A stretch of DNA of 64,000 bases. Source: Candidatus Bathyarchaeota archaeon. Its GTDB lineage: Archaea; Thermoproteota; Bathyarchaeia; 40CM-2-53-6. The stretch spans positions 32,001 to 96,000 of the forward strand of contig CAVSBL010000002.1 of the NCBI GenBank assembly GCA_963726255.1. Reading direction: 5' to 3'. The position numbers and the translations under genes were made by a program. Below are positions 10,667-64,000 of the stretch, in pieces. The stretch's first letter is position 1. The number at the start of each line of letters is the position of its first letter. The notes beneath the pieces are model-generated. The model was given only the letters and a program-made list of their open reading frames with translations, was not told where the DNA came from and made no database searches.

Positions 10667-10814
10667 TGGTAGCGGGGGGTGGATGTTCGGGCTTTTCGCC
10701 TTTCGAACCACCGGTTGAGGAGTTTTTTCGACTCAATCTCAGGGTTTCTCGCCAGGATATGAGCCCTCCGCACGGGAAGGTTCTGCGGGTTAAACCTGGC
10801 TACCCCACCCCGCT
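10667..10814 (-). tRNA. initiator tRNA-Met(CAT) with four introns: 29/30 (10766-10782), 37/38 (10746-10757), 47/48 (10714-10735), 59/60 (10684-10701); CCA encoded
   Basis: Spliced 79-nt sequence AGCGGGG TG GGGT AGCCAGGTTTA ACCC G CAGGG CTCATAA CCCTG AGATC GGTGG TTCGAAT CCACC CCCCGCT ACCA; A1-U72 and three G-C pairs (29-31/39-41) mark an initiator; BHB/BHL at every junction. Confidence 0.92.
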
Positions 10815-54915: not shown

Positions 54916-55224
54916 TGGGTCGACGTGTTGGCCGTAACCCACCTTCTGTTTTAGGCGACATTCATCTAGTCGGGATACCCGCGCCTCAGGCGGTTTTCAC
55001 GGGCGCCTATTATCCCTTTCACAGCGTGTGTAGGCATTTCACCCTTACCGCCAGCCTCCTCAACGCAAGCGCATCATAGTCGTCGGCTGGTGGAGGTTTT
55101 TTTCTGCGCCTTAACCCAACCTCTCGGCTGGCACTTCACAGTGCCACGCTTCCGCCATGTGGGTGGAGTTTCCTCAAGCCCAATACGCATAGGGCCCGGA
55201 GTCGCTCACCAACTCGCCAACCCA
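54916..55224 (-). ncRNA. rnpB: archaeal RNase P RNA
   Basis: On the minus strand, GAGGAAACTCCACCC (CR-I) and AAACAGAAGGTGGGTTA (CR-V) form P4; terminal P1 TGGGTTGGCG/CGTCGACCCA. Confidence 0.92.
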
Positions 55225-59338: not shown

Positions 59339-60887
<1,549 letters not shown>

Positions 60888-63120
60888 TAGTAAATTCGAA
60901 TGGACTGGAAGACAAATGAGTTGTGACTGCGAGCCAAGATGCGATAATGCAGCTTCCGAGCTAACATTCGGAAGCGAAGGGTATAGTGATCATTCACTCC
61001 GAAACGGATGATCATGATGAACACCGTGCATAGGCCTCAACGTTAGACGAGTGTGGGTTCCATAGTAAGTTCGGCATGATAAGCCACCTGAAGGATGGCT
61101 GGGCTTGGGCACTGAAGAAGGGCGTGGCAAGCTGCGATATGCTCCGGGTAGCCGCATGCAGGCTTCGATCCGGAGATACCCGAATAGGACTTCCAGCCGC
61201 GGGTGAAACCTGCGGCGCTCCGAAAAGGAGCGGGAACCTCCCGAACGGAAGCATCCAAGTAGGGAGAGGAACAGAAATCAATTGAGATTCCCCCAGTAGC
61301 GGCGAGCGAAAAGGGAACAGCTCAAACTGAACCTGCATGGGAAACTATGCGGGAATGTGGGGTTATAGGGCCCGACCGCGCCCTCGCTCGAGAAGTTGAA
61401 GTGGCCTGGAACGGCCCACCGTAGAGGGTGAAAGTCCCGTAAACATAACCGAGCAAGGTTTGGGTTGGTGTCCCTGAGTACTACGCCCCGGATTGGGCGT
61501 AGAAATTTGGGAGGAAGCAACTTCCAAAGCTAAACATGTCCCAAGACCGATAGCGCACTAGTACCGTGAGGGAAAGCTGAAAAGTACCCCGGAAGGGGGG
61601 CGAAAAGTGCCTGAAATCAGGTGGTAACAGTTGTGCACAGCCCGAAAGGGTAGATCCCCTCCGAAGGAAACCGCGGCAACGCGGCTGTACGCAAGAGGGG
61701 GGACCAGGGTTGTGCGTTCCGTTTTGTACCACGGGCCGGGGAGTTCATCTTCGTGGTGAGGCTAAGAGTGTGATGCTCGAAGCCGTAGGGAAACCAACAA
61801 GTTCGCAACGTCGCAAGACGCGAGGAACGAGATCTGAAAGGGTCTGAAATCACGGGGATGACACTAGAAACCGAGTGATCTAGCCTTGGGCAGGGCGAAG
61901 CCGGGCGAAAGCCCGGTGGAGGCCCGCATGGGTGATGACGTGCAAATCTCTCCGTTGACCTGGGGCTAGGAGTAAAAGGCCAATCTAACTCGGTGATAGC
62001 TAGTTCCCGCCGAAATATCTCTAAGGATAGTCTGGCCGGAGGTTGCCAGCGGGGTAGAGTACTGATTGAAAAACAAGGACTCGAAAGGGTCCACTTTTCG
62101 TTCAAACTCCGAATTCGCTGGCGCCGTAGAAGGCTGGAAACGGATGTGGGGGGTAAGCTCCCATGTCGCGAGGGGAACAACCCAGACTAGGGTTAAGGTC
62201 CCCAAATCCTGGCTAAGTGTAGAAATAGAAAGCGGTCCTCAACCACAGACAGCTGGAAGGTAGGCTTAGAAGCAGCCATCCTCCAAGCAGTGCGTAACAG
62301 CTGACCAGCCGAGGTTGGGGGCGCCGAAAACGAACGGGGCTAAGCCAGGTACCGTTACCCTAGAACACGATGCATAATCGTGTTGGTAGGCGGGCGTTGT
62401 GGCTGGGCGGAAGCTGGGTTTTGAGATCCAGTGGACCGGCCACAAGTGTAGATCCCGGTGGTAGTAACAGCCATAGAGGGGTGAGAATCCCCTCCGTCGA
62501 AGGGGCAAGGGTTCCCCGGCAATGCGTCGTCAGCCGGGGGTAAGTCGGCCCTAAGGCAACCCTTAACCGGATAAGCCGAAAGGGAAACCGGTTAAAATTC
62601 CGGTACCACGGAGGTACACGCGGCAACGCAAGTCCGCAATCTGACGCTTGGGGATAAGTTGAGTGGGGCCGTCGCCCCATTTAACCCGTCAAGGCCGGGA
62701 AGTACCATAATGGTGAGAACCGGCCGAAGCGGGAAATAGCCGCCCGTCTTAGGGTGGTTCAGCCGAGTCCTCGAGCCAATGAAAAGGAGCACGGAATGAA
62801 TCCTCCGTGACCGTACCTAAATCCGACACAGGTGCCCCTAGGTGAGAAGCCTTAGACGTATCGGGTGGAACTTAGGCGAGGGAACTCGGCAAATTAGCCC
62901 CGTAACTTCGGAAAAAGGGGTGCCTGACGTTTTGGCGCAAGCTGGAACGCCAGGTCGCAGTGACTCGGGAGAAGCGACTGTTTACTAAAAACATAGGGAA
63001 CCGCCAGCCCGAAAGGGTGTGAACGGTTCCTGAGTCCTGGCCAGTGGCGGTACCTGAAACTCGGGTTCAACCAAGCTAAGGGCCGCTAAACGCCGGGAGT
63101 AACTCTGACTCTCTTAAGGT

Positions 63121-63822
63121 AAACAGTGGTTTGCCTTAACCAAATCCGGCTATATGCTGGAAGGTCTGGCGAATGTCACACTACTCCAATCGAACCTCCA
63201 AGAAACATAAGCAACCTTGGACTACGGTTGAAGTGAAAAAGTGTTGACTGCAGATAATCAGCAGGAAAGGCTGGATCCGCGATGGGTCACGGGATTCGTC
63301 GACGGCGAAGGATGCTTCCATATCTCCATAAACAAGCAACCAAAGATGAGCATGGGATGGCAAGTATTACCAGAATTTCGAATAGTGCAACACAAACGTG
63401 ACGAAGCACTTCTCAAGGAACTTCAACGATTCTTCAAAGCTGGGAAAGTGGTTGTGAATCACGACCAGCGAAAAGAACTCAGAATACGAAAATTGAATGA
63501 ACTGACCAACGTGATTGCTCTCTTCGAAAAATATCCACTAAGGACCAAGAAAAGCGAAGATTTCGAAGTTTTCAGACAAGTCTTGCGCGCAATGAAGCAA
63601 CGCGAACATTTGACTCGTGAAGGACTCGACAGGATAGCTAACCTTTGCTGGAAGATGAATCGAAAAGTGAAGCCGCGGTATCTAGAATCCTCAGAGACTC
63701 TACGCCGGAAATCGCTGAAGTGCGATTAAGATATAGTCCGACCCCTGTAGCGATGCAGGGAGGTTTGCGATGTGCAAACCCGCCTACAATATTTCTGTTA
63801 GGTCACGGAAGTAACAGATGTG
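63121..63822 (+). mobile_element. group I intron (IB-like) at 23S position about 1931
   Basis: 5' exon ends in U with P1 TTAAGGT/GCCTTAA; P ATGCTGGAA, Q AATCAGCAGG (63256-63265), R TCAGAGACT (63691-63699), S AAGATATAGTCC (63728-63739); P3 CCGGC/GCCGG; terminal G at 63822; P10 TGGTT/AGCCA. Confidence 0.95.
63241..63729 (+). CDS. single-motif LAGLIDADG homing endonuclease
   Basis: WVTGFVDGEGCFHISI, FRIVQHKRD, KYPLRTKK...FEVF, HLTREGL. Confidence 0.93.
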   Translation: MLTADNQQERLDPRWVTGFVDGEGCFHISINKQPKMSMGWQVLPEFRIVQHKRDEALLKELQRFFKAGKVVVNHDQRKELRIRKLNELTNVIALFEKYPLRTKKSEDFEVFRQVLRAMKQREHLTREGLDRIANLCWKMNRKVKPRYLESSETLRRKSLKCD

Positions 63823-64000
63823 AGCCAAATGCCTTGTCGGGTAAGTTCCGACGTGCATGAATGGATCAACGACTTCTCCGCTGTCCCCGCCTAGGGCCCG
63901 GTGAACCCACAACCTGGACGAACAGTCCAAGGTCTTCCAGCGGGGCGAGAAGTCCCCGTGGAGTTTTACTGCAACCTGTCGCTGGGATGTGATTGCGGGT

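Follow-up and report, generated by a model that had tools for sequence, protein, structure and literature searches.

A four-intron initiator tRNA gene conserved across a genus of Bathyarchaeia, and the possible order of its splicing

The initiator tRNA gene and its interruptions

The window (the whole stretch of 64,000 nucleotides that was analyzed) contains an initiator tRNA-Met(CAT) gene on the minus strand at positions 10814-10667, in which A1 lies at 10814, A73 at 10670, and an encoded CCA at 10669-10667. The gene is composed of five exons and four introns, and the span on which a preliminary description of this DNA had focused (10684-10790) extends, inside the gene, from A22 through the final base of the intron at 59/60. 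In silico excision of the four introns yielded a 79-nt product, which was called as tRNA-Met(CAT) by ARAGORN with all four stems intact. The spliced tRNA as drawn by the same program displays A1 paired to U72, G:C at all three pairs of 29-31:39-41, and CAU as the anticodon, a combination which we take to be the hallmark of archaeal initiator tRNA-Met and which is matched here. The other Met tRNA of the genome has a G1:C72 pair and is the elongator. When the unspliced locus was searched, nothing was called by ARAGORN (default, intron, and relaxed modes) or by Rfam (gathering thresholds, and E values up to 10). In addition, a genome-wide blastn search with the spliced tRNA detected neither a second initiator copy nor a partial repeat of the 3' half in this genome (2.42 Mb, 98.5% complete, 9.3% contamination), no other match exceeding 23 nt.

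The introns were analyzed base by base using the definition of BHB (bulge-helix-bulge) motifs given in the methods text of a preprint (bioRxiv 10.64898/2026.10.13.758758), according to which the central helix is formed by four exon bases, those upstream of the 5' bulge, with four intron bases, those upstream of the 3' bulge, and a cut falls in each of the 3-nt bulges. Exon boundaries were taken from the ARAGORN product, and all features of the gene lie on the minus strand. Exon 1 (10783-10814, positions 1-29), whose D-loop carries 17a, 20a, and 20b as judged from the product and from relatives, is followed by the 17-nt intron A at 29/30 (10766-10782), an HBh'-type motif in which GCGG (10771-10768) pairs with C24-C27 (10788-10785) at 4/4 positions, with an outer helix of 1 bp (C23:G31) and an inner helix of 2 bp. 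Exon 2 (10758-10765, positions 30-37) is only 8 nt long and contains the CAU anticodon. The adjoining 12-nt intron B at 37/38 (10746-10757) is of the relaxed hBH/BHL type; its GAG pairs with C32-C34, giving a central helix of 3/4 with an A.C mismatch (relaxed class), and its outer helix is the anticodon stem, which is split by intron A and amounts to 4 bp in the precursor, two of them between exon bases only. Exon 3 (10736-10745, positions 38-47) leads to the 22-nt intron C at 47/48 (10714-10735), in which CUCA (10719-10716) pairs with U42-G45 (10741-10738) at 4/4 positions, flanked by an outer helix of C41:G49 and C40:G50 and an inner helix of 4 bp. Finally, exon 4 (10702-10713, positions 48-59) is separated from exon 5 (10667-10683, positions 60-73 plus CCA) by the 18-nt intron D at 59/60 (10684-10701), a full hBHBh' motif in which CGAA (10689-10686) pairs with U54-G57 (10707-10704) at 4/4 positions, the outer helix being the whole 5-bp T-stem and the inner helix having 3 bp.

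At least one flanking helix (h or h') of at least 2 bp is present at each of the four sites. In a chance control with 5000 shuffles per intron, a 4/4 central helix arose in 41 shuffles of the 29/30 intron, 97 of the 47/48 intron, and 210 of the 59/60 intron, and a central helix of at least 3/4 in 509 shuffles of the 37/38 intron. Every base-level pairing that had been claimed for the four motifs was recovered under the published rule, including the occupation of C24-C27 by the 29/30 motif, which indeed also splits the anticodon stem.

The genes neighboring the initiator tRNA encode a zinc-ribbon protein, an MFS transporter, a methyltransferase, and an HTH protein, and no adjoining integrase gene was found among these neighbors. 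The idea that tRNA introns protect from integration, on which the preliminary description had drawn, is a hypothesis put forward for split genes (Randau and Soll, cited in PMC4033280). With it the lack of an adjoining integrase and of any longer tRNA match in the genome is compatible, though this does not amount to evidence in its favor. Elsewhere, the window is archaeal in its stable RNAs, with an RNase P RNA at 54923-55217 (minus strand) and a 16S-23S rRNA operon at 59340-60887 and 61067-64000 (plus strand). The metagenome runs matched to the stretch are labelled sediment, soil, and peat, and in contigs from the three DNA runs that were checked either the gene itself or the variants of relatives were present. 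One contig of a DNA run joins 10684 to 10785, which is probably the less interrupted gene of another organism.

Heavy interruption may not be confined to the initiator. The elongator tRNA-Met of the genome (G000:C2:144263-144372, outside the window) is apparently also multiply interrupted, as ARAGORN reports an 18-nt intron at 32/33 together with an over-long variable region. Over the whole genome, ARAGORN with introns allowed produced only 35 tRNA calls; an intron was placed in 31 of these, and seven of the called introns exceed 500 nt and are probably wrong. tRNAs are under-called by standard tools in this lineage.

Conservation of the gene in relatives

A survey of the genus detected the gene, by its 5' exon, in 15 of 23 genomes, the other eight being 76-96% complete. 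All four introns are present in 13 of these 15 genomes (14 distinct genes, with two copies in one genome), and the remaining two lack the 47/48 intron alone. Over the 16 genus genes, the exons are identical save for one mismatch in one gene, and CCA is encoded in all 16; the 60-nt upstream and downstream flanks share 61% identity, introns A, C, and D 71-78%, and intron B 95%. Among relatives at the family and order levels, alleles without each single intron were found, in which the break falls exactly at the predicted boundary; they support the assigned introns independently. Further intron positions occur at 15/16 and, as read by eye, at 71/72. The central helix is also maintained over distinct genes: it is 4/4 in 17 of 17 for A, 40 of 40 for C, and 38 of 40 for D, and 3/4 in 16 of 17 for B. 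Covariation is seen in the inner helices, of which C has 22 variants and D has 15, and the bulge bases are variable.

Several relatives show peculiarities of their own. In a sister genus of the same family (L099-L106), the 3' strand of the initiator's acceptor stem is interrupted at about 71/72 by an intron of roughly 30 nt, in which GGGG pairs with C66-C69, and the gene also has introns at 37/38 and 59/60 (read by eye). One genome with a full four-intron gene also holds a truncated second copy (L076, G012:C438:5955-5981), in which the initiator gene breaks off after its first 24-27 nt and gives way to unrelated sequence; a rearrangement or an insertion could have left it behind. In another genome of the same genus (G013), two slightly different four-intron copies (L013 and L070) lie on two contigs, which may be due to strain mixing in the bin or to a true duplication.

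The failure of standard tRNA finders to detect the gene could be taken as a sign of a decaying pseudogene, or of an unexpressed locus, with motifs that are mere leftovers. Against such decay stand the absence of any other initiator tRNA gene from a genome that is 98.5% complete, the near-identity of the exons in the genus (one mismatch in 16 genes) next to flanks of 61% identity, and the covariation of the inner helices. Decay is therefore extremely improbable, and was rejected on the grounds that this is the sole initiator copy and that its exons are conserved between diverged flanks.

Splicing enzymes, motif overlap, and order of cutting

Two EndA paralogues of 188 and 187 aa (in open frames of 200 and 192 aa) are encoded at separate loci of the genome, and each matches both PF01974 and PF02778. 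The best solved match of the 188-aa protein, the predicted alpha subunit, is the catalytic chain of the Aeropyrum pernix enzyme (3p1z_B; E 8e-41, residues 9-187 of 188 aligned); it retains the catalytic His, at a position which is Ala in 3ajv_B, and its K41/K43 are aligned to K44/R46 of the Crenarchaea-specific loop. In the 187-aa protein, the putative beta subunit, a gap lies opposite the His segment of Methanocaldococcus jannaschii EndA, its best solved match. The ligase RtcB is also encoded (E 8.5e-172). No EndA of the epsilon2 type (ARMAN-type, a single three-unit polypeptide) was found in the genome, the sole hits being the two paralogues of about 188 aa. As read from these genes, the splicing endonuclease is predicted to be an alpha2beta2 enzyme with a specificity loop, in which one of the two subunits is catalytic. 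A relaxed-specificity endonuclease of either alpha2beta2 or epsilon2 type had been anticipated, and the search for EndA subunits and their specificity loop points to the former. In A. pernix, the Crenarchaea-specific loop and its K44 confer broad specificity, so that BHB and BHL motifs are cut at any position (PMC3241643), and heteromeric EndA is known to accept HBh' and hBH motifs (PMC4090602, PMC3241643).

Whether the four motifs compete depends on how strictly they are drawn. In the full hBHBh' form, neighbors overlap, and only neighbors: G30 and G31 are common to A and B, C40 to B and C, and G49 and G50 to C and D. The 3' bulge of A holds G30 and its outer pair uses G31, both of which are needed by the outer helix of B. 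A single structure is consequently impossible in strict form for A+B, B+C, C+D, A+C+D, and all four together, whereas A+C, A+D, and B+D are compatible. When the motifs are reduced to their cores (central helices plus unpaired bulges), all four fit into one nested structure, whose modelled cost of 13.5 kcal/mol at 37 °C is about the sum of the single costs. Every central helix, bulge, and inner helix is contiguous in the primary transcript; only the outer helix of B is interrupted, by intron A, with two exon pairs left. Over 14 orthologues, the couplings between cores in the full precursor have medians of at most 0.6 kcal/mol, being near zero for A-C, A-D, B-D, and C-D, +0.3 for A-B (range -3.4 to +2.2), and +0.6 for B-C, with mixed signs.

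Two of the three strict clashes (B-C and C-D) are due to the 2-bp outer helix C40-C41/G49-G50 of the 47/48 motif. In the fold model, this helix loses to the 5-bp T-stem, the strict motif having a probability of about 0.002 compared with about 0.47 for the core, and the 47/48 site most likely acts as an HBh' motif which would project like a variable arm. Thus, the earlier statement that the four motifs cannot all form at once holds for strict hBHBh' neighbors, which share nucleotides, and does not hold for cores and bulges, which are compatible in one nested fold. The same applies to the proposed competition of the 47/48 fold with the anticodon stem and the T-stem: C40 and G49/G50 are indeed shared, but the conflict depends on a 2-bp helix that is hardly ever occupied in the model. 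As modelled, competition between the motifs is real but marginal. The arrangement does not impose a nested obligatory order, in which one BHB is blocked until another intron has gone. Moreover, each of the four sites already counts by published criteria as an hBHBh', HBh', or relaxed substrate while the precursor is still complete, so that there is no need for the postulated refolding between every cut.

The relationship between context and motif formation was explored by computing what it costs to impose each core motif on every one of the 15 species that still bear an intron (the full precursor and 14 partly spliced forms) for the 14 orthologues, which are kin and not independent; a temperature of 30 °C was chosen because the runs matched to the stretch are labelled sediment, soil, and peat. 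The D core has a median cost of about 0.4 kcal/mol whatever the context. The median cost of the C core is 0.46 kcal/mol in the full precursor versus 2.7 kcal/mol without A and B (a rise of about 2.3), as U42 and G43 are then contested by the re-formed anticodon stem. For the A core, the median is 5.0 kcal/mol with B in place versus 5.9-6.5 kcal/mol without it. The B core, by comparison, costs 7.2 kcal/mol with A in place versus 4.4-5.0 kcal/mol after A has gone (a drop of about 2.3). The outer helix of B is just 2 bp in eight of the 17 genes with a 37/38 intron (15 of these 17 also have intron A), and becomes 5 bp after removal of A. In the nearest-neighbor model at 37 °C, the occupancy of A and B is at most 0.001 in every intermediate, even as the last intron left. 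Clearly, such a model under-describes protein-bound BHBs, and any order drawn from differences of 1-2.7 kcal/mol is weakly grounded.

These model costs suggest an order that would be preferred and not obligatory, with 59/60 and 47/48 removed early and then 29/30 before 37/38. In the proposed mechanism, the precursor would be cut by the alpha2beta2 EndA, whose Crenarchaea-type loop would tolerate relaxed motifs at non-canonical places, and the exons would be ligated by RtcB. D and C, which are predicted to be stable, independent, and cuttable in the primary fold, would come first; A would then be cut with B still in place, and B would be cut last, once the 5-bp anticodon stem that serves as its outer helix is whole again through the loss of A. 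At least one refolding would be implied, from a precursor fold with an open D-arm to a cloverleaf-like fold. As a whole, the reading that the gene at 10814-10667 (minus strand) is a functional single-copy initiator tRNA-Met gene with four BHB introns, spliced in this preferred order by an alpha2beta2 EndA, is somewhat favored.

A stricter scheme was put forward in the preliminary description, in which the four motifs are mutually exclusive, splicing is strictly stepwise, and refolding is obligatory between cuts. The strict-form conflicts described above (A-B, B-C, C-D, A+C+D, and all four), the need of the outer helix of B for G30 from the 3' bulge of A, and the distance of one nucleotide between the A and B motifs, on both of which a tetrameric enzyme could hardly sit at once, are in its favor. 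We nevertheless regard it as unlikely, given that A+C, A+D, and B+D are compatible even strictly and the four cores nest in one structure, that the 2-bp helix to which two of the three clashes are due is scarcely occupied in the model, that heteromeric EndA takes HBh' and hBH motifs as substrates (PMC4090602, PMC3241643), and that C and D occur together in 37 of the 40 distinct family genes with a 47/48 intron. At the other extreme, each intron might be recognized alone as a relaxed motif and removed in random order, the shared nucleotides having no kinetic effect. The near-zero or small couplings between cores, the insensitivity of D to its context, and the ability of the loop-bearing alpha2beta2 enzyme of A. 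pernix to cut BHB/BHL motifs at any position (PMC3241643) fit such independence, which is a possible but rather doubtful account, since the context effects of about 2.3 kcal/mol (on B after A has gone, and on C after A and B have gone) are consistent over the 14 orthologues, intron A physically splits the outer helix of B, and the multi-intron pre-tRNAs of Cyanidioschyzon merolae, whose motifs fold independently, are nonetheless spliced in order with 37/38 last (PMC3728597).

A more specific extension of the preferred order concerns intron B. Its loop CCUGGC (10751-10756, minus strand) is the exact complement of GCCAGG in the D-loop (G15-G19; 10795-10800, minus strand), and the two form a 6-bp helix enclosing the A motif in the minimum-energy fold at 37 °C, with a probability of at least 0.64 in 12 of the 14 orthologous precursors. 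Permutation of the loop raised the cost of the A motif in 144 of 150 cases (median 7.5 versus 5.1 kcal/mol) and lowered the cost of B itself in 119 of 150. This type of 37/38 intron is always accompanied by a 29/30 intron (16 of 16 genes). Intron B may accordingly be imagined as a built-in clamp, whose pairing with the D-loop would keep the D-arm open, free C24-C27 for the 29/30 helix, delay the 37/38 cut, and set the order of 29/30 before 37/38. The strong conservation of intron B in the 16 genus genes relative to the other introns and the flanks counts for this idea. On the other hand, both sides of the helix are invariant, which leaves no covariation to test, a 6-nt complement can arise by chance, a distant relative (L020) has a 29/30 intron without any 37/38 intron, and CCUGG is also found in the 37/38 intron of a sister genus, where it forms the central helix. 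The clamp is a tentative and rather unlikely idea. When other genes were searched for the 37/38 intron, a single unrelated exact match turned up, with no sign of an intron family.

Significance and comparison with known systems

In this organism, all protein synthesis would start on a tRNA from which four introns must be excised, with a ligation for each, and the gene offers a natural, conserved test substrate for a relaxed-specificity endonuclease whose target motifs are crowded and in part overlap. With it, the range of very heavily interrupted tRNA genes comes to include Bathyarchaeia, which are widespread in soils and sediments. As the gene is missed by standard annotation, such genomes would seem to have no initiator tRNA. 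With four introns there are 14 possible intermediates, and relatives provide natural three- and two-intron alleles, which makes the order easily testable.

Reviews up to 2021 gave three introns per tRNA gene as the archaeal maximum (PMC4033280, PMC8450103). Subsequently, soil Asgard archaea were described as having multiple non-canonical introns in more than half of their tRNA genes (2024, PMC11291895), and up to five introns in one tRNA gene were reported in a preprint of October 2026 (bioRxiv 10.64898/2026.10.13.758758). The idea of ordered removal, in which one intron has to be taken out before a neighboring BHB can form, has also been discussed (PMC8450103, PMC3728597). Ordered or nested removal of tRNA introns and up to five introns per gene are thus already in print, and the question of order is not new; the four-intron initiator tRNA conserved across a Bathyarchaeia genus is a new example of a known archaeal oddity. 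No archaeal tRNA gene with four introns was found in the main texts covered by our literature search, and supplements (Supplementary Data 4 of PMC11291895, and those of the 2026 preprint) may list some. The available text of that preprint makes no mention of nested introns, sequential removal, initiator tRNA, or Bathyarchaeota.

Regarding the enzyme, the predicted alpha subunit resembles A. pernix EndA (3P1Z, 3AJV) in its conserved catalytic His and in having Lys/Lys at the Lys/Arg positions of the loop; it differs in that its sequence is far from identical, and the putative beta subunit is more diverged. Among gene architectures, that of the soil and wetland Asgard archaea is similar, as most of their tRNA genes have several non-canonical BHB introns and many are missed by standard tools (PMC11291895); however, they belong to another phylum, and the available texts (PMC11291895, and the 2026 preprint) describe neither a splicing order nor overlapping motifs. 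The Thermoproteales (Pyrobaculum, Thermofilum, and Caldivirga) likewise have several non-canonical BHB introns per tRNA gene, some of them close or 'nested', and an alpha2beta2 EndA with the Crenarchaea-specific loop. In contrast to the maximum of three introns given in the reviews (PMC4033280, PMC8450103), four are present here, in a member of Bathyarchaeia from runs labelled sediment, soil, and peat; and unlike in their nested introns, no central helix or bulge is split by another intron, the outer helix of B being the only element interrupted. The closest parallel for the order itself is a three-intron tRNA of C. merolae, for which intermediates detected by RT-PCR revealed that the flanking introns are removed first, in either order, and the 37/38 intron last, the same order as modelled here (PMC3728597). 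That gene is a eukaryotic nuclear one with an endonuclease of unknown architecture and motifs that fold independently, and its order was measured, whereas the order proposed for the bathyarchaeal initiator tRNA comes from a fold model.
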